From Escherichia phage vB_EcoM-LTH02, in the sequence record PP430346: 64,000 nucleotides of DNA. One strand, given 5' to 3'. The notes under the pieces were generated by a model. That model ran no database searches, was not told where the DNA came from, and saw only the letters and a program-made list of their open reading frames with translations. This document shows, piece by piece, positions 16,651 to 21,810 of this stretch (its first letter is position 1; each line of letters starts with the position of its first letter). Made by a program: the position numbers and the translations under genes.

Positions 16651-16727
16651 CTCTGTTTAGCTCAGCTTGGTAGAGCGTTCCGTTTGGGGCGGTAAGGCCG
16701 GAGGTTCAAGTCCTCCAACAGAGACCA
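16651..16727 (+). tRNA. tRNA-Pro (anticodon TGG)
   Basis: Cloverleaf by eye: acceptor CTCTGTT/AACAGAG, D GCTC..GAGC, anticodon loop TTTGGGG, T-arm GGAGG-TTCAAGT-CCTCC, CCA encoded. Confidence 0.75.
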
Positions 16728-16734
16728 AATTAAT

Positions 16735-16812
16735 GTTCCAGTAGACAAAATGGTAAAGTCACCACTCTTTCAAAGTGGATATTTGAGGGTTCAAATCCCT
16801 TCTGGAACGCCA
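16735..16812 (+). tRNA. tRNA-Glu (anticodon TTC)
   Basis: Acceptor GTTCCAG/CTGGAAC, anticodon stem CCACT/AGTGG with loop CTTTCAA, T-loop TTCAAAT, CCA encoded. Confidence 0.75.
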
Positions 16813-16819
16813 GTTTTGA

Positions 16820-16892
16820 CAGAAGACCAATTGCAGCAAACTTAATCTTATTCATCTGACACGAAATCGGACAAAGAAGAGATTTGGTCTGG
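16820..16892 (+). ncRNA. structured element of the AGACC/GGTCT stem family (a)
   Basis: 5' CAGAAGACCAA-TTGCAGCAA ... TTGGTCTGG 3'; terminal 7-bp stem AGACCAA/TTGGTCT; lies between tRNA-Glu and tRNA-Met. Confidence 0.45.
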
Positions 16893-16903
16893 TCATTAAG
16901 AAT

Positions 16904-16980
16904 TGCGGGTATAGAGAAAGGGCGTCTCACATGTCTCATTAGCATGGTATCGGCAGGTTCGACTCCTGCACCCGCCTCCA
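16904..16980 (+). tRNA. tRNA-Met-like (anticodon CAT), irregular
   Basis: Anticodon stem CATGT/GCATG with loop CTCATTA, D-stem GAGA/TCTC, T-arm GCAGG-TTCGACT-CCTGC, 3' ACCCGCC-T-CCA; the acceptor pairs only with a T1/C72 mismatch or an extra nucleotide before the D-stem. Confidence 0.5.
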
Positions 16981-16986
16981 ATTTTG

Positions 16987-17046
16987 CAGAAGACCGTATT
17001 CAGCAACAAACTACTTTTTGCGGATAAAAGAAAAAACACGGTCTGG
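16987..17046 (+). ncRNA. structured element of the AGACC/GGTCT stem family (b)
   Basis: CAGAAGACCG-TATTCAGCAA ... CGGTCTGG; stem uses CG where elements a and c use CAA/TTG (compensatory change). Confidence 0.45.
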
Positions 17047-17057
17047 CAATGTATTAA

Positions 17058-17134
17058 GGTTAGGAAGCACATAAGGTATGTGCGGTCGCCTGTTAAGCGA
17101 ATGGCACAGGGTTCGAATCCCTGACTAACCGCCA
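17058..17134 (+). tRNA. tRNA-Asn (anticodon GTT)
   Basis: Acceptor GGTTAGG/ACTAACC, D GCAC..GTGC, loop CTGTTAA, T-arm CAGGG-TTCGAAT-CCCTG, G-CCA. Confidence 0.75.
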
Positions 17135-17143
17135 AATTTAAAT

Positions 17144-17231
17144 GTGTCGTTATCCCGTAGATGGTAGCGGTGGGGACTGTAAATCCCTTGTCATTGAGAC
17201 TCGGTAGGTTCGACTCCTACACGGCACACCA
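17144..17231 (+). tRNA. tRNA-Tyr (anticodon GTA), class II
   Basis: Acceptor GTGTCGT/ACGGCAC, loop CTGTAAA, long variable arm, T-arm GTAGG-TTCGACT-CCTAC, A-CCA. Confidence 0.7.
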
Positions 17232-17237
17232 AATAAA

Positions 17238-17315
17238 GGTTATGTAGTTTAATCTGGTTAAAATACTCCCCTGTCACGGGAGATGATGAGGGTTCAAATC
17301 CCTTCGTAACCGCCA
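17238..17315 (+). tRNA. tRNA-Asp (anticodon GTC)
   Basis: Acceptor GGTTATG/CGTAACC, anticodon stem CTCCC/GGGAG with loop CTGTCAC, T-loop TTCAAAT, G-CCA. Confidence 0.75.
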
Positions 17316-17402
17316 AATTATAATAAGTATTTCAAGATGATGTTTTGAGAGGGCTATTTAGCCCCTCCCTTAAAGAGTTCTTACGAGTATTCTTTAAAGG
17401 AG

Positions 17403-17479
17403 CAGAAGACCAAATTCAGCAAGTACGTATGATATTTTCAAGCCAATTTAATTTTGAAAAAATTTAAAACTTGGTCTGG
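17403..17479 (+). ncRNA. structured element of the AGACC/GGTCT stem family (c)
   Basis: CAGAAGACCAA-ATTCAGCAAG ... TTGGTCTGG; internal hairpin TTTTCAA...TTGAAAA. Confidence 0.45.
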
Positions 17480-17492
17480 CTCAACAAATTTA

Positions 17493-17624
17493 CAGAAGAC
17501 CGTTTACAGCAAAACTTAAACAATCTATTTCTCCGGTAAAGAAAAGGCGAAGGTTCGATTCCTTCACTCGGCAGATGTCGAGTTGGTGTAATGGTAGCAC
17601 TTAAGATGATAAACAACGGTCTGG
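17493..17624 (+). ncRNA. YrlA-like (Y-RNA-like) candidate: terminal stem plus circularly permuted tRNA-like module
   Basis: Terminal stem AGAAGACCGTT (17495-17504) / AACGGTCT (17615-17622); inside, in this order: hairpin TTTCT-CCGGTAA-AGAAA (17528-17544), canonical T-arm GAAGG-TTCGATT-CCTTC (17549-17565), closed acceptor-like stem ACTCGGC-AGAT-GTCGAGT (17566-17583), D-arm GTGT-AATGGTA-GCAC (17586-17600). Confidence 0.55.
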
Positions 17625-17631
17625 TAATTAT

Positions 17632-17763
17632 CTTTGTAGATAAGTTATTAAGCTTACCTGTGAGTATGCGACCACAAAGGGTGAAAGGGTAAATTCTAGA
17701 TTTAAACCCAACAAGGCACATCGCTACAGACCTTAAGCAAGTCTGGGTAGCTTATCTACAAAG
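17632..17763 (+). ncRNA. structured region closed by a 13-bp long-range inverted repeat
   Basis: CTTTGTAGATAAG (17632-17644) pairs with CTTATCTACAAAG (17751-17763); encloses hairpin CAGACC-TTAAGCAA-GTCTGG (17726-17745). Confidence 0.4.
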
Positions 17764-17773
17764 ATAATTTAAT

Positions 17774-17849
17774 GGAAGTGTAGCAGAATGGTGATGCGGC
17801 AGACTTTTAATCTGACAGGCGATGGGTTCGAATCCCTCCACTTCTACCA
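17774..17849 (+). tRNA. tRNA-Lys (anticodon TTT)
   Basis: Acceptor GGAAGTG/CACTTCT, loop CTTTTAA, T-loop TTCGAAT, A-CCA; T-stem weak (3 bp). Confidence 0.65.
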
Positions 17850-17853
17850 ATAT

Positions 17854-17930
17854 GGTTCAGTCGCAGATAAGGTAATGCAAGGGTCTCATAAACCCTATGA
17901 ATGTGGGTTCGATTCCCATCTGAACCTCCA
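17854..17930 (+). tRNA. tRNA-Met or Ile2 (anticodon CAT)
   Basis: Acceptor GGTTCAG/CTGAACC, anticodon stem AGGGT/ACCCT with loop CTCATAA, T-arm GTGGG-TTCGATT-CCCAT, T-CCA. Confidence 0.75.
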
Positions 17931-17931
17931 A

Positions 17932-18007
17932 GCTGGTATAGTTAAGAAGGTTATAACACTCCCCTGATAAGGGAACATCGGTGGTTCGATTCCACCTACC
18001 AGTACCA
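17932..18007 (+). tRNA. tRNA-Ile (anticodon GAT)
   Basis: Acceptor GCTGGTA/TACCAGT, D GTTA..TAAC, loop CTGATAA, T-arm GGTGG-TTCGATT-CCACC, A-CCA. Confidence 0.75.
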
Positions 18008-18022
18008 ATTTCAATAAAGTTG

Positions 18023-18051
18023 TTGACATTGAGATGTGACCACTTTATAGT
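18023..18051 (+). promoter_or_regulatory. internal promoter in the tRNA region (TTGACA-17-TATAGT)
   Basis: TTGACA 18023-18028, 17-nt spacer, TATAGT 18046-18051; about 200 nt non-tRNA leader follows before tRNA-Arg. Confidence 0.6.
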
Positions 18052-18254
18052 AACCTTAGTTTTCGTTGCGTAGCGTCTATTTTGCAAATTTAAAATAAAT
18101 GCAAACGACAATGTTTTTCTGGCAGTAGCTTGATAGGCTAAACACCAGTGAGGTCTTCCAATCCCTCATCAAAGAATTTGGCGTACTCGCCCACGGTATG
18201 ATTAATAAGGTGGGCATCTTTAAGGGCTTTCTAAGAGAGTCTTTAAAGATTAAT

Positions 18255-18331
18255 GCACCCTTAGTTCAATTGGATAGAGCAACGGTCTTCTAAATCGTTA
18301 GTTACAGGTTCGAATCCTGTAGGGTGTGCCA
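18255..18331 (+). tRNA. tRNA-Arg (anticodon TCT)
   Basis: Acceptor GCACCCT/AGGGTGT, D GTTC..GAGC, loop CTTCTAA, T-arm ACAGG-TTCGAAT-CCTGT, G-CCA. Confidence 0.75.
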
Positions 18332-18473
18332 AATAGTTAGCAGATTGCTTAGACGACCTTATCGGGTCTCCGTGTAAGGAGGTGGTCTGTATCTCATGTT
18401 TTCCAGAACATGTAAATAATCTGAGAAGGGGCTTTACAGTGTTGCGAAAATACGGTAAGCTTCGAATTATAGT

Positions 18474-18556
18474 GTGGGACGATGTTAAGACTCTAAGGCA
18501 TGAGCAACGGCCTCCAAAACCGTTTCAAAGGGGTTCAACTCCTCCGTCCCATGCCA
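18474..18556 (+). tRNA. tRNA-like, possibly Trp (anticodon CCA), irregular
   Basis: Acceptor GTGGGAC/GTCCCAT, T-arm AGGGG-TTCAACT-CCTCC, G-CCA; anticodon arm ACGGC-CTCCAAA-ACCGT; 9 nt instead of 2 between acceptor and D-stem, total 83 nt. Confidence 0.4.
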
Positions 18557-18569
18557 AAGTCTTATTAGG

Positions 18570-18659
18570 GGTAGGTAGCGGCTAATGGTAGCCAAACTGT
18601 CTTGAAAACAGTTGCCACTGTAGAGATACGGTGAGGGTTCGACTCCTTTACTTACCGCC
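18570..18659 (+). tRNA. tRNA-Ser (anticodon TGA), class II
   Basis: Acceptor GGTAGGT/ACTTACC, anticodon stem ACTGT/ACAGT with loop CTTGAAA, long variable arm, T-arm GAGGG-TTCGACT-CCTTT; 3' end reads G-CC-T, so CCA is not fully encoded. Confidence 0.7.
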
Positions 18660-18814
18660 TAATAAGATTTAAAGCCAAGCTTCATTCGGATGTTGCTTTG
18701 GTATCCCTCGTGTATTGTCGTACACGCACAGTAAAGCACCTAGTAGGTGTCACGGAGAAGAGATAATATCAAGCTCTCCAAAGGTTCTAGTCACCGGATT
18801 AAACAAGACTATGC

Positions 18815-18836
18815 AAAGACCAAATTAGGTCTTTTT
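18815..18836 (+). terminator. terminator-like hairpin using the AGACC/GGTCT stem
   Basis: AAAGACC-AAATTA-GGTCTTT followed by TT. Confidence 0.4.
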
Positions 18837-18915
18837 AGAGGGCTTCTAAGGTTATTACAGCTTGTTGTGGAACCTTGTTGCTTAGGTTCTTAGAAGTTCT
18901 CTAAAAAGATTTAAT

Positions 18916-18992
18916 GCACCTATAGCCCAATTGGTAGAGGCAGCAGACTTAGAATCTGCTCAGTGTGAGTTCGAATCTCTCTAGGTGTACCA
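18916..18992 (+). tRNA. tRNA with anticodon TAG (Leu by anticodon; short variable arm)
   Basis: Acceptor GCACCTA/TAGGTGT, anticodon stem GCAGA/TCTGC with loop CTTAGAA, T-loop TTCGAAT, A-CCA; 77 nt. Confidence 0.65.
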
Positions 18993-18999
18993 AATTAAT

Positions 19000-19075
19000 G
19001 CAGGTGTAGCAAAATGGTTATGCGGCTGACTCTTAATCAGTAAGACGATGGGTTCAATTCCCTCCACCTGTACCA
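19000..19075 (+). tRNA. tRNA-Lys (anticodon CTT)
   Basis: Acceptor GCAGGTG/CACCTGT, loop CTCTTAA, T-loop TTCAATT, A-CCA; paralog of tRNA-Lys(TTT). Confidence 0.65.
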
Positions 19076-19081
19076 AACATT

Positions 19082-19157
19082 GGGGATGTAGTTTACATGG
19101 TTAAAACATAAGTTTTGCAAACTTAAGTACAGGGTTCAATTCCCTGCTTCTCCACCA
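19082..19157 (+). tRNA. tRNA-Ala (anticodon TGC)
   Basis: D GTTT..AAAC, anticodon stem TAAGT/ACTTA with loop TTTGCAA, T-arm CAGGG-TTCAATT-CCCTG, 3' CTTCTCC-A-CCA. Confidence 0.7.
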
Positions 19158-19163
19158 ATTAGT

Positions 19164-19238
19164 GCATCCATAGTTTAAACGGGAAAATTACAGTCTTCCA
19201 AACTGAGGTTGAGGGTTCGATTCCCTCTGGATGCTCCA
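19164..19238 (+). tRNA. tRNA-Gly (anticodon TCC)
   Basis: Acceptor GCATCCA/TGGATGC, loop CTTCCAA, T-arm GAGGG-TTCGATT-CCCTC, T-CCA. Confidence 0.75.
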
Positions 19239-19244
19239 AACAAT

Positions 19245-19321
19245 GCTGCTTTCGTATAATTGGCTATTACACATCCCTTGTAAGGATGGAAATGCAGGTT
19301 CGAGTCCTGTGAGCAGCACCA
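19245..19321 (+). tRNA. tRNA-Thr (anticodon TGT)
   Basis: Acceptor GCTGCTT/GAGCAGC, anticodon stem CATCC/GGATG with loop CTTGTAA, T-loop TTCGAGT, A-CCA. Confidence 0.75.
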
Positions 19322-19325
19322 ATTC

Positions 19326-19411
19326 AGAGGTCAAGTGAAAGACCGCTGGTGTCAACTGAAGACCGTAACAAATTCCACGGAGTTGAGTTAGCGGCACAAC
19401 TTCAGACCTCT
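19326..19411 (+). ncRNA. multi-stem structured element between tRNA-Thr and the next tRNA
   Basis: Nested stems AGAGGTC (19326-19332) / GACCTCT (19405-19411); CCGCT (19343-19347) / AGCGG (19390-19394); TCAACT (19352-19357) / AGTTGA (19381-19386); apical loop carries GAAGACCGTAACAAATTCC, related to the 5' arms of elements a-d. Confidence 0.45.
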
Positions 19412-19416
19412 TCCAT

Positions 19417-19491
19417 ACTCGCTTAGTTTATATGGTAAAACACCACCCTTACAAGATGAAGAAAAAGGTTCAAGTCCTTTAGTGAGTACCA
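19417..19491 (+). tRNA. tRNA-like, anticodon probably TAC (Val); weak anticodon stem
   Basis: Acceptor ACTCGCT/AGTGAGT, D GTTT..AAAC, T-arm AAAGG-TTCAAGT-CCTTT, A-CCA; anticodon region CCACC-CTTACAA-GATGA forms only 3 of 5 pairs. Confidence 0.45.
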
Positions 19492-19492
19492 T

Positions 19493-19570
19493 GTTCCAGT
19501 ATCCCAATTGGCAGAGGATGCAAGCTCAAACCTTGTACTAGTGACGGTTCGAATCCGTCTTGGAACACCA
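19493..19570 (+). tRNA. tRNA with anticodon CAA (Leu by anticodon; short variable arm)
   Basis: Acceptor GTTCCAG/TTGGAAC, anticodon stem GCAAG/CTTGT with loop CTCAAAC, T-arm GACGG-TTCGAAT-CCGTC, A-CCA. Confidence 0.65.
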
Positions 19571-19575
19571 ATTTT

Positions 19576-19651
19576 GCAGGATTAGTTCAAATGGATAGAG
19601 CAACAGTCTACGAAGCTGTTAATAGGGGTTCGAATCCCTTATCCTGCGCCA
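19576..19651 (+). tRNA. tRNA-Arg (anticodon ACG)
   Basis: Acceptor GCAGGAT/ATCCTGC, D GTTC..GAGC, loop CTACGAA, T-loop TTCGAAT, G-CCA. Confidence 0.75.
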
Positions 19652-19670
19652 ATTTAAAGAGGCTATTTAG

Positions 19671-20228
19671 ATGAGATATTTGAAGTATGCTTCATGGATT
19701 TTCTTAGCTTTGTTAGAGCCATTTGCAGCAATCTTAGCAGTTATCTTAGCACCTTTCGTAGTTCCATTTTACAGTGAGAAGAAAGGACACTTACCTTTCG
19801 GATTTAGATGGATGGAAACTTACGACAACCCGATTGATGGTGATGAAGGTCACGTCAAACGATGGGCTAAGATTAGAAAGATTGGTAAGCTTGGTATCTA
19901 TATGCAGAGAGTCGGTTGGCTCTGGAGAAACAAAGCTTATAACTTCTCTTATCATGTGTTAGGAAGAGATGTGAAAGATGTTACTAAGTGGAAAGGTAAT
20001 ATTAATGTAAGTTCTAACCCTGAAGATAATCAGACAGGTTATCTCCTAATGTGGAACAGTAATGCTTGGGGATTATTCGCTTTTATCCCATCAATTAAAG
20101 TCTTTGGTAAACAATTCTACTGGAGAATTTATGTTGGATGGAAACTTAAAAGTGTTGTCCCAAAAGAAAGAGCATTCTCAAGGGAAAGAGTTATGTTGGC
20201 ATTCTTTATTCATCCACTAAGAAAGTAA
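19671..20228 (+). CDS. hypothetical Trp-rich membrane-anchored protein embedded in the tRNA array (185 aa)
   Basis: ATG at 19671 with SD in AAGAGGCTATTTAG; N-terminal hydrophobic helix WIFLALLEPFAAILAVILAPFVV. Confidence 0.55.
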   Translation: MRYLKYASWIFLALLEPFAAILAVILAPFVVPFYSEKKGHLPFGFRWMETYDNPIDGDEGHVKRWAKIRKIGKLGIYMQRVGWLWRNKAYNFSYHVLGRDVKDVTKWKGNINVSSNPEDNQTGYLLMWNSNAWGLFAFIPSIKVFGKQFYWRIYVGWKLKSVVPKERAFSRERVMLAFFIHPLRK

Positions 20229-20236
20229 AGATTTAA

Positions 20237-20312
20237 AGGGGATTAGTTTACAAGGTTAAAACCTCGGTCTTTGAAATCGAAGAAGTTGGTTCAATTCCAA
20301 CATCCCCCGCCA
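20237..20312 (+). tRNA. tRNA-Gln (anticodon TTG)
   Basis: Acceptor AGGGGAT/ATCCCCC (A1/C72 mismatch), D GTTT..AAAC, anticodon stem TCGGT/ATCGA with loop CTTTGAA, T-arm GTTGG-TTCAATT-CCAAC, G-CCA. Confidence 0.7.
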
Positions 20313-20314
20313 AT

Positions 20315-20393
20315 GCTCCATTACTCCAATTGGCAGAGAGGCCAGACTTAAAATCTGTGTTATGTATCGGTTCGAATCCGATATGGAGTACCA
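20315..20393 (+). tRNA. tRNA with anticodon TAA (Leu by anticodon; short variable arm)
   Basis: Acceptor GCTCCAT/ATGGAGT, loop CTTAAAA, T-arm ATCGG-TTCGAAT-CCGAT, A-CCA. Confidence 0.6.
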
Positions 20394-20398
20394 AATTT

Positions 20399-20474
20399 AG
20401 CGGTATAGCATAACTGGCAATGCAGCAGTCTCTGAAGCTGTCTTATTAAGGTTCAAATCCTTATGCCGCTGCCA
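20399..20474 (+). tRNA. tRNA-Gln (anticodon CTG)
   Basis: Acceptor AGCGGTA/TGCCGCT, D GCAT..ATGC, loop CTCTGAA, T-arm TAAGG-TTCAAAT-CCTTA, G-CCA. Confidence 0.7.
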
Positions 20475-20505
20475 CTTCTAAGGGTTCTTACGAGAGTCCT
20501 TAAAT

Positions 20506-20581
20506 GTGGCCTTATCATAAAAGGTAATGACCCATGCTGTGAACATGGTCTATACGGGTTCAAATCCCGTAGGTCACCCCA
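20506..20581 (+). tRNA. tRNA-His (anticodon GTG)
   Basis: Acceptor GTGGCCT/AGGTCAC, D TCAT..ATGA, anticodon stem CCATG/CATGG with loop CTGTGAA, T-arm ACGGG-TTCAAAT-CCCGT, discriminator C then CCA. Confidence 0.75.
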
Positions 20582-20586
20582 ATTTA

Positions 20587-20663
20587 TAGTCCAAGTAGCT
20601 TATATGGTTAAAGCGCGTGTCTGAAAAACATGAGAAGAGGGTTCAAATCCCACTGGACTACCA
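20587..20663 (+). tRNA. tRNA-Phe-like (anticodon GAA), irregular acceptor/D junction
   Basis: D GCTT..AAGC, anticodon stem CGTGT/ACATG with loop CTGAAAA, T-loop TTCAAAT; acceptor TAGTCCA/TGGACTA pairs perfectly but leaves a nonstandard junction and 3' end. Confidence 0.55.
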
Positions 20664-20679
20664 ATTTCAAAGGTGCTTA

Positions 20680-21414
20680 ATGAAAGAGATGACAGAACAA
20701 GGTAAGGAGATTTTTAATCTCTTAAAAACCGGTAGAGGGTTTTCTAATCCCCTTATTACTGGTGCAGCAGTTCTCGGTGGAACCGTAGCTGCCTCTACAT
20801 CACTTGTAAGCTCTATTAGCTCTGTAACAGACCCTACAATAAAAGATAAGCTTATTGCTGCTGGACTTACAACAGTTCTGCTTAATAGCTTTACAACGAG
20901 TCTGACAAGCACTACATCAACCACTAAGACATTGACAGATTACGGTCAAAAATCAATTGATGAGTTTTCATCACGTATGCAGGTAGCAAAAGGATATTCC
21001 AATGTTATGGGTGCAGCAGGAGAGCAAGTTGGTTGTACACCATTTAGTGGTATTATGGGTGTTGCTACAGAGTATGGTCAAAAAGCTATTGACACAATTA
21101 ACAGCACACTAGACAGTGTTAACGGTGTGTTAAGTGACTTACAGGATGCTATTGATGAAGGTCTTGATACCATTTCTGATTTAGCTAACCAAGCTGTTAG
21201 CAAGATTAATGAAGGTATCTCAAAGATTACAGCTTATGCAGATGAAGTTGTGCAGATGATTGAAGAAGAAGCTGCCCTTATTGCAGAGTACCTTAAAACG
21301 AATATCAATGGGTTCTTAGCAGGTATCTTACCAGACTGGTTTGATGATGCTTGTAAAACTGGTGTAATTGATACTATTGCAACACCAGAAATGAAGAACG
21401 CATTACAGAAATAA
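20680..21414 (+). CDS. hypothetical Ser/Thr-rich protein (244 aa)
   Basis: ORF track 20617..21414 starts at GTG inside tRNA-Phe; moved to ATG at 20680; stop lies 1 nt before tRNA-Ser(GCT). Confidence 0.55.
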   Translation: MKEMTEQGKEIFNLLKTGRGFSNPLITGAAVLGGTVAASTSLVSSISSVTDPTIKDKLIAAGLTTVLLNSFTTSLTSTTSTTKTLTDYGQKSIDEFSSRMQVAKGYSNVMGAAGEQVGCTPFSGIMGVATEYGQKAIDTINSTLDSVNGVLSDLQDAIDEGLDTISDLANQAVSKINEGISKITAYADEVVQMIEEEAALIAEYLKTNINGFLAGILPDWFDDACKTGVIDTIATPEMKNALQK

Positions 21415-21415
21415 T

Positions 21416-21508
21416 GGAAGATTAACCCTAAAAGGTAAGGGAGCAGTTTGCTAAACTGCCAGTAGCTGAGAAATCGGTGTACCAGTTCAAGTCTGGTATC
21501 TTCCTCCA
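21416..21508 (+). tRNA. tRNA-Ser (anticodon GCT), class II
   Basis: Acceptor GGAAGAT/ATCTTCC, anticodon stem GCAGT/ACTGC with loop TTGCTAA, long variable arm, T-arm ACCAG-TTCAAGT-CTGGT, T-CCA. Confidence 0.7.
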
Positions 21509-21512
21509 ATTT

Positions 21513-21588
21513 GAATCCGTGACAGAAATGGCTATGTGCCTGTCTGCAAAACAGGTTTATAAGGGTTCGAGTCCCTTCGGATTCTCCA
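21513..21588 (+). tRNA. tRNA-Cys (anticodon GCA)
   Basis: Acceptor GAATCCG/CGGATTC, anticodon stem CCTGT/ACAGG with loop CTGCAAA, T-arm AAGGG-TTCGAGT-CCCTT, T-CCA. Confidence 0.75.
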
Positions 21589-21686: not shown

Positions 21687-21810
21687 CAGAGTTATACTTT
21701 ATAAGAAGACTTATACAGTATGTCTCTGACGTACATTGTGGTTTCTCCTTGACGGTCTCTGTACCGTCTTTTTTAAGGGGAAACATGGTTAATTATTTGG
21801 AGAAAACATA

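Follow-up and report, generated by a model that had tools for sequence, protein, structure and literature searches.

The tRNA array of Escherichia phage vB_EcoM-LTH02 (sequence record PP430346) raises the question of what occupies the 95-nt gap between its tRNA-Thr(tgt) and tRNA-Val(tac) genes. In the 64,000-nt stretch of this genome analyzed here (the window), a preliminary description had drawn three nested stems at positions 19326-19411 of the + strand (86 nt; hereafter, the element). Such a structure could be a spacer of the tRNA precursor, a tRNA-like molecule, a relic, a site acting at the DNA level or an RNA gene in its own right.

Location of the element in the tRNA array

By BLAST, the window region corresponded to Felix O1-like phages (Ounavirinae: Felixounavirus, Mooglevirus and Suspvirus), with identities of up to 99-100%. 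ARAGORN predicted 26 tRNA genes on the + strand (16651-21588), 24 of which were confirmed by Rfam; 15 of the 25 tRNA junctions in the array were 1-9 nt long. The element begins 4 nt after tRNA-Thr and ends 5 nt before tRNA-Val (Table 1). The closest upstream promoter was sigma-70-like and, judging from its sequence, probably drives the part of the array that holds the element. No terminator-like sites were found on the + strand between this promoter and position 21718, nor was there an intrinsic terminator (a G+C-rich hairpin plus a U run) at 19322-19416, the tail being UCCAU. With a promoter upstream and no terminator between, the element lies inside the tRNA transcription unit, as had been proposed.

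The bases 3' of the outer stem were variable, reading UCCA in this window alone: CCA was absent in nearly all the relatives, most of which had UUCA, UUAAAG or UCAAAG, and Avunavirus copies had UCUA or ACUA. Among otherwise near-identical Felix-type arrays, tRNA-Ala(tgc) (19082-19157) and tRNA-Thr(tgt) were each present as two alleles, about 23% divergent, indicating a cassette-like replacement of single tRNA genes. The element was the same beside either tRNA-Thr allele.

Table 1. Positions of the element, its parts and neighboring features in the window.
Feature	Positions	Strand	Remarks
AGACC/GGTCT hairpins E1-E4 (window 16819-17624)	16819-16892, 16986-17046, 17402-17479, 17492-17624	+	Same strand as the element
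Sigma-70-like promoter	18023-18051	+	TTGACA, 17-nt spacer, TATAGT; 11/12 matches
tRNA-Thr(tgt) with encoded CCA	19245-19321	+	ARAGORN; Rfam tRNA, 54.7 bits
Linker AUUC, from CCA of tRNA-Thr to P1	19322-19325	+	AUUU, GUUC or CUUC in relatives
P1, 5' strand AGAGGUC	19326-19332	+	Pairs with 19405-19411 (7 bp); 94.6% of cells paired, 29 distinct sequences
Joining region AAGUGAAAGA	19333-19342	+	Purine-rich
P2, 5' strand CCGCU	19343-19347	+	Pairs with AGCGG, 19390-19394 (5 bp)
Conserved core GUCAACUGAAGACCGUAACAAAUUCCA	19351-19377	+	27 nt; identical in Felix-type and Avunavirus-type copies
P3, 5' strand UCAACU	19352-19357	+	Part of core; pairs with 19381-19386 (6 bp)
GAAGA bulge	19358-19362	+	Part of core
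P4, 5' strand CCGU	19363-19366	+	Part of core; pairs with 19377-19380 (4 bp)
Loop AACAAAUUCC	19367-19376	+	Part of core; 10 nt
P4, 3' strand ACGG (19377-19380), and P3, 3' strand AGUUGA (19381-19386)	19377-19386	+	Nested fold
P3', 5' strand GGAGUUG	19379-19385	+	Pairs with 19397-19403 (7 bp)
P2, 3' strand AGCGG	19390-19394	+	In the 11-nt loop of P3' in the P3' fold
P3', 3' strand CAACUUC	19397-19403	+	Within internal direct repeat
P1, 3' strand GACCUCU	19405-19411	+	
3' tail UCCAU	19412-19416	+	Reaches the tRNA-Val RNase P site
tRNA-Val(tac)	19417-19491	+	ARAGORN, Rfam

Coding potential and database searches

No credible ORF was found in the element, in agreement with the preliminary description. 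The antisense ORF at 19188..19397, suspected there to be spurious, spans the tRNA-Thr and tRNA-Gly genes, and 1-nt indels at 19347-19350 in close relatives disrupt its frame; on both grounds we also regard it as spurious. Some GenBank records annotate a hypothetical protein at this place, and not one of 259 records annotates an RNA.

A search of Rfam 15, which covers riboswitches, ribozymes, Y RNA and sRNAs, yielded no family match for the element at the gathering threshold or at E <= 10, the E <= 10 output there consisting of just two chance snoRNA fragments (E = 0.34 and 4.1). Likewise, 19322-19416 gave no ARAGORN call and no Rfam tRNA match even at E <= 10. An origin as a tRNA remnant was rejected, the best likeness among the 32 tRNAs of the window phage and Erwinia phage phiEa21-4 being non-significant (z = 2.9), and so was the N-CCA following a 7-bp acceptor-like stem as a tRNA trait, for it is not conserved and CCA is encoded in nearly all the tRNAs of this phage. 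The literature search retrieved no Felixounavirus transcriptome paper and nothing relevant on the element.

Distribution among phages

Phage records matching a 141-nt query centered on the element were counted. The element was found in 259 records, 253 of them with at least 80% query coverage, comprising Felixounavirus, Mooglevirus and Suspvirus together with six Avunavirus-type records (Vequintavirinae; Av-05, TH18, 24-2-1 and others) in which the match (82%) was confined to the element. In Av-05 it directly follows tRNA-Gly(tcc) and precedes two small ORFs, and Thr, Val, Leu and Arg tRNAs are missing. The protein of the second small ORF, Av05_008, is 78-81% identical to that of the Felix-type ORF at 19671-20228, downstream of tRNA-Arg, revealing a common module of the form Gly, (Thr), element, (Val-Leu-Arg), ORF. 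The element was thus retained across both phage groups, while four tRNAs of the module differ.

In phiEa21-4, which belongs to the sister genus Kolesnikvirus, the syntenic order Gly-Trp-Thr-Val-Leu-Arg was conserved with a 7-nt Thr-Val spacer and no element, which is therefore dispensable for this genus. A Thr-Val junction lacking the element in phiEa21-4, and an element lacking Thr and Val in Avunavirus, argue for a separate accessory gene and not a spacer; on this comparison of sequences, the element is a clade-specific accessory unit that the Thr-Val junction does not need. The preliminary description had counted relatives devoid of the element against an RNA; phiEa21-4 is such a relative, but we read it as the mark of a clade-specific accessory gene, which leaves the RNA unrefuted.

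Wider scans of IMG/VR for core patterns (one 19-mer, two 14-mers) and of metagenomes and GTDB genomes for a 19-mer, screened with nhmmer, returned, beyond chance matches in coding sequences, only Felix-type and Avunavirus-type copies and one more divergent metagenomic copy (L263). The covariance model R1 detected no second copy in the 64-kb window and gave no match over 50 kb of phiEa21-4, and in the T4, JS98, RB43 and YerA41 regions its matches did not get below E = 0.25; in 39 IMG/VR loci carrying the neighboring ORF family it added two further Felix-type copies and nothing else new. The single 24-nt match in E. coli genomes is meaningless, the database being too large for short seeds.

Two kinds of insertion present in relatives are missing from this window: about 110 nt holding a small ORF, placed between tRNA-Leu(caa) and tRNA-Arg(acg) (e.g., L001 1171-1287), and, in some relatives, an HNH or endonuclease VII gene located 5' of the element. 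The ORF at 19671-20228, which lies downstream of the tRNA block and has its homologue in Avunavirus, encodes 185 aa with a hydrophobic N-terminus; many T4-like phages have homologues with about 57-61% identity, and the JS98 copy is located directly 3' of the tRNA cluster and an rnaD-like RNA.

Conservation of the element and its core

Mean divergence from the window over 26 Felix-type loci was 1.7% for the element, 0.1-3% for most flanking tRNAs, and 2.4% and 13.0% for codon positions 1+2 and 3, respectively, of the next ORF. The element thus diverged about eight times less than the third codon positions of its neighbor, and on this sequence comparison it is under purifying selection; with its presence in 259 phage records, this marks it as more than a chance structure.

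The element has a conserved 27-nt core, for which the 29 distinct sequences contained only three single-base variants (U19374 to C, U19374 to A and G19365 to A). Much of this core is unpaired in either of the folds described below, yet it is conserved across both clades, which points to sequence-specific recognition by a partner. No antisense target of the core better than chance was found in the 64-kb window: the best duplex reached -19.4 kcal/mol, whereas shuffled sequences averaged -21.0. A likeness of UGAAGACCGUAACAA to UGAAGUCGUAACAA of the 16S rRNA decoding region was dismissed as chance, 200 of 300 shuffles scoring as well.

The nested fold

All three perfect stems of the preliminary description (7, 5 and 6 bp) were read directly in the sequence as P1 (AGAGGTC/GACCTCT), P2 (CCGCT/AGCGG) and P3 (TCAACT/AGTTGA), the last enclosing 23 nt (19358-19380, GAAGACCGTAACAAATTCCACGG). 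RNAfold recovered this nested fold as both the minimum free energy (MFE) and the centroid structure (-30.7 kcal/mol, z = -3.03; stability matched by 2 of 200 dinucleotide shuffles), so the thermodynamic prediction coincided with the drawing. Within the 23 nt it added a 4-bp helix, P4, that leaves a GAAGA bulge and the 10-nt loop; the apical loop is thus enclosed by the stems as described, but it is partly paired in the MFE structure. The minus strand folded about as well (-31.3 kcal/mol, z = -2.9), and energy therefore does not decide the strand.

Two alignments were used, one of 25 sequences (A1) and a later set of 29 distinct sequences. Under the nested model 96.1% of the cells were paired, three pairs were changed on both sides, and none of 500 shuffles reached the observed covariation score; RNAalifold retained P1, P2, P3 and P4. 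P1 showed a compensatory G-C to U-A change in Avunavirus and one G.U variant, and P2 a compensatory G-C to A-U change in a metagenome contig (L259), with a G.U intermediate in another (L283). A further pair, G19341-C19395, can extend P2 and is A-U in Avunavirus. By comparison, then, the outer and middle helices are real, and both bear the compensatory changes that the earlier drawing called for.

The inner stem did not share this behavior. P3 and P4 were paired in 98.9% and 97.4% of the cells of the 29 sequences, with no both-sided changes, two changes tolerated as wobbles and no positive covariation, and four variants broke pairs (C.A in wV8-type copies, A.C in L303, and, terminally in P3, U.U and U.C). 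Covariation among homologs hence upheld P1 and P2 and not the 6-bp inner stem, whose competitor covaried best (see below).

Three additional contacts were considered. P1b, which RNAfold placed beside P1 by pairing AAGU of 19333-19342 with ACUU at 19399-19402, was rejected: it was paired in 90.9% of the cells, showed A.C mismatches, competes with the alternative helix P3' and is not formable in Avunavirus owing to a 2-nt deletion. A K-turn at the GAAGA bulge was rejected by inspection, the A required at 19381 being G in Avunavirus and the register unfit. In a scan of all helices, the GAAGA bulge was complementary to UCUUY at 19409-19413 (the 3' end of P1 and the tail), a pairing maintained in 97% of cells with two variable pairs; since it overlaps P1, it would be an alternative or transient contact.

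A competing helix and the strand of the RNA

When all possible helices of 5-7 bp in the alignment were scanned, the first rank among those variable yet fully maintained went to P3', in which GGAGUUG pairs with CAACUUC. All of its 203 cells were paired in the 29 distinct sequences, although four of the seven pairs vary: A-U to G-C in Avunavirus, G.U to G-C in three lineages, G.U to A-U in wV8-type copies, U-A to U.G in Mooglevirus, and G-C to G.U. The competition between P3 and P3' stems from an internal direct repeat (CAACUUCAGACC at 19397-19408 and CAACUGAAGACC at 19353-19364), and P3' is mutually exclusive with P3, P4 and the AAGU/ACUU extension. As P3' crosses P2, the two together would form an H-type pseudoknot, with P3' stacked on P1 across a single intervening nucleotide.

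Single-sequence MFE structures contained P3' in Av-05 and L263; for Felix-type sequences the nested fold was about 7 kcal/mol better than the best pseudoknot-free fold with P3'. The comparative preference for P3' over the inner nested stem is suggestive, on perhaps nine substitutions, mostly transitions; the sequences are close (mean column identity 94%) with few independent events, and the covariation probably falls short of formal R-scape significance. The inner architecture probably differs from the nested drawing, with P3' and a pseudoknot, or is dynamic. Because both pairings can form in essentially every sequence, a two-state switch between the P3 and P3' folds is possible.

The wobble variants bear on the strand: G.U pairs are valid on the + strand only, and 20 of 29 sequences have such a pair at A1 columns 58-80, in P3'. 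Since all the wobble variants are G.U on the + strand, they indicate an RNA on the tRNA strand.

AGACC/GGTCT hairpins and other structured sequences of the array

Four paralogous hairpins, E1-E4, share the layout 5' CAGAAGACC(R)(W)..CAGCAA and 3' GGTCTGG. Their outer 4-bp stem, AGA bulge and inner AGACCNN/NNGGTCT stem covary between copies and phages, and the interiors bear no relation to one another. Felix-type loci conserve these hairpins, which the tRNA region of Av-05 lacks. The core sequence CUGAAGACCGU of the element matches the 5' arm CAGAAGACCGU of E2 and E4 at 10 of 11 positions, which bears out the relatedness to this motif noted earlier for the loop, and CAGCAA is missing from the element. 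Both kinds of structure have C(A/U)GAAGACCGU at the 5' side of a helix in which CCGU pairs with an ACGG further downstream. They differ in that the 3' arm NNGGUCUGG of E1-E4 pairs with AGACCNN, while on the 3' side of the element, ACGGAGUUG, just CCGU/ACGG can pair; the element has no 3' GGUCUGG arm, its AGA is unpaired and two extra helices enclose it. The covariance model R1 did not cross-detect E1-E4.

Several other features of the array were observed along the way. Inside E4, the interior at 17516-17610 reads as a circularly permuted tRNA-like unit, in the order anticodon arm (UUUCU-CCGGUAA-AGAAA), T arm (GAAGGUUCGAUUCCUUC), 3' acceptor strand (ACUCGGC-A), a 3-nt linker, the complementary 5' acceptor strand (GUCGAGU) and D arm (GUGUAAUGGUAGCAC), with a partial Rfam tRNA match at 17516-17566 (22 bits, E = 0.077); it could be a permuted tRNA gene or the deletion remnant of tandem tRNAs. 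In phiEa21-4 (L290, 22205-22335), a TTGACAG ... GGTCTGGTCAA pair surrounds the whole tRNA-Ala gene and resembles the outer arms of E1, a hint that AGACC/GGTCT arms may mark the boundaries of tRNA cassettes. A motif, GGTTCTTACGAGAGTC, bounded by inverted arms of the CTTTAAAG type, recurs a few bases before tRNA genes or groups of them (17371-17402, 18222-18251 and 20475-20505, with a variant at 18880-18905) and is conserved in phiEa21-4 (L290, 24255-24283). Just upstream of tRNA-Leu(tag), 18813-18914 contains a small AAAGACC-AAAUUA-GGUCUUU hairpin followed by an inverted repeat of about 21 bp (UCUUUUUAGAGGGCUUCUAAG...CUUAGAAGUUCUCUAAAAAGA); its match to MIR473 (26.7 bits) was judged spurious. 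At 18474-18556, GUGGGAC...GUCCCAU-G-CCA may be an aberrant tRNA-like gene whose anticodon loop is oversized; ARAGORN made no call there, and the Rfam tRNA-Sec model scored 23 bits (E = 0.042).

Comparison with known RNAs

RNA C and RNA D of phage T4 (species 1 and 2 RNAs; rnaC and rnaD) are tRNA-cluster RNAs whose role is unknown (PMC3014915). Like the element, they are small, non-coding, carried on the tRNA strand and located within a phage tRNA cluster or at its end, and homologous ORFs lie downstream of the tRNA regions of both Felix-type and T4-type phages. They are longer (139 and 119 nt against about 86 nt) and fold differently, and RNA C has a canonical T arm (GGGUUCGAAUCCC) that the element lacks; no sequence or structure homology of the element to rnaC or rnaD was detected with the covariance model R1 in the T4 and JS98 regions. 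With tRNAs and tRNA-like structures the element shares a 7-bp terminal stem, size, location and the topology of P1, P3' and P2, but it has no cloverleaf, no T- or D-loop motifs and no conserved CCA.

Hairpin RNAs other than tRNAs that are matured by RNase P include the 4.5S RNA precursor and the C4 antisense RNA of phages P1 and P7. Like the element, these have a terminal helix ending in a short single-stranded 3' extension, and tRNA-processing enzymes would be expected to free the element, too, from a longer precursor; these RNAs show no homology to it, and its RCCA-like 3' tail is not conserved.

Discussion

The reading that we find best, and to which we give about an even chance on the sequence comparisons, is that of a non-coding RNA gene in its own right, some 86-90 nt long, specific to its clade and embedded in the phage tRNA operon. 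It is supported by a structure specific to the + strand, purifying selection, independence from particular tRNAs, an upstream promoter and the lack of a terminator before 21718. On this best reading, it would represent a new, previously unannotated family of phage small RNA of the same kind as T4 RNA C and RNA D.

Against a separate gene, the element could be a cis-acting hairpin with no function of its own, aiding the processing, folding insulation or stability of the tRNA precursor near Thr and Val. Its position within the transcription unit, a few nucleotides from either tRNA, and the further structured spacers of the same array would suit this, but we regard it as unlikely: phiEa21-4 has the same junction with 7 nt, most junctions of the array are equally short, Avunavirus keeps the element ahead of ORFs with neither Thr nor Val, and a generic hairpin would not need the nucleotides that are conserved in both clades although unpaired in either fold. 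Quite unlikely, in our judgment, is a mimic of tRNA topology, a model in which the acceptor-like P1 is stacked on the 7-bp P3' arm and the 11-nt loop docks upstream through P2, just as the T loop of a tRNA docks on its D loop; jointly with this topology, and at the same low probability, the mimic would engage RNase P, the CCA-adding enzyme or, as a decoy, a host tRNA-targeting defense nuclease. The terminal 7-bp stem followed by N-CCA in this window, a tRNA-like size and position, and 3' strands of P3' and P1 that are nearly continuous with their 5' strands apart, as in tRNA, speak for it, as does the precedent of T4 RNA C, which also lies in a tRNA cluster and has a canonical T arm. Neither ARAGORN nor the Rfam tRNA models recognize the element, however, T-loop and D-loop consensus sequences are missing, CCA is lacking in nearly all the relatives, likeness to the tRNAs of the window phage and phiEa21-4 is at chance level (best z = 2.9 in 32 comparisons), and the pseudoknot is a predicted one.

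A relic or selfish insertion, that is, a decayed AGACC/GGTCT hairpin or a derivative of a tRNA cassette with no benefit to the phage, would account for CUGAAGACCGU being common to the element and the 5' arms of E2 and E4, for the over-representation of GAAGACC in the window (17 found, 6.2 expected), for the internal direct repeat and for the sister genus lacking the element. We consider it very unlikely, with divergence about 8-fold below that of synonymous-like sites, helices maintained by compensatory changes, a copy kept in Avunavirus, whose tRNA region has no AGACC/GGTCT elements, and a covariance model blind to E1-E4. The same compensatory changes, which keep the pairing rather than the sequence, make it highly improbable that the hairpin potential is incidental to a DNA-level site, such as a homing-endonuclease target or a recombination or protein-binding site. 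Homing endonuclease genes do come and go in the tRNA region of the relatives, and the minus strand folds as stably as stated above, but the endonuclease and ORF insertions fall outside the element, and several G.U pairs of the + strand would become C.A mismatches in a minus-strand fold.

Taking the small RNA gene as the preferred reading, the RNA would be transcribed from the + strand together with the tRNAs, from an early sigma-70 promoter. Cleavage by RNase P at the 5' end of tRNA-Val would release its 3' end, and its 5' side would be set by the 3' maturation of tRNA-Thr through RNase E and 3' exonucleases. The product may persist as a compact RNA with its ends clamped by P1, a helix shown by the sequence comparison, in which GGAGUUG would pair either with UCAACU, as a nested rod, or with CAACUUC, placing P3' on P1 in a pseudoknot with P2, the option favored by comparison. 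The 27-nt core would be the working part, presumably a site that acts in trans by binding either a protein or another RNA. A more specific proposal, a pseudoknotted RNA of tRNA topology or a two-state switch whose core captures a host factor, for instance as a decoy or inhibitor of a tRNA- or RNA-targeting defense nuclease, is speculative and carries a small probability.

The annotation can be corrected now, given that the element is unannotated in every record checked and sometimes lies under spurious hypothetical protein calls. To our knowledge, non-tRNA RNAs in phage tRNA arrays have gone unexplained for decades, and the element provides a compact, strongly conserved second example. With two competing pairings that are conserved equally well, it is amenable to study as a candidate RNA switch or pseudoknot. 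The group of phages that carry it, Felix O1 and its relatives, is widely used in therapy and typing, and a natural copy for comparison exists in Avunavirus. Phage tRNA arrays are increasingly viewed as countermeasures to host nucleases that cut tRNAs; if the decoy proposal were true, the array of these phages would carry an RNA-based counter-defense besides its replacement tRNAs.
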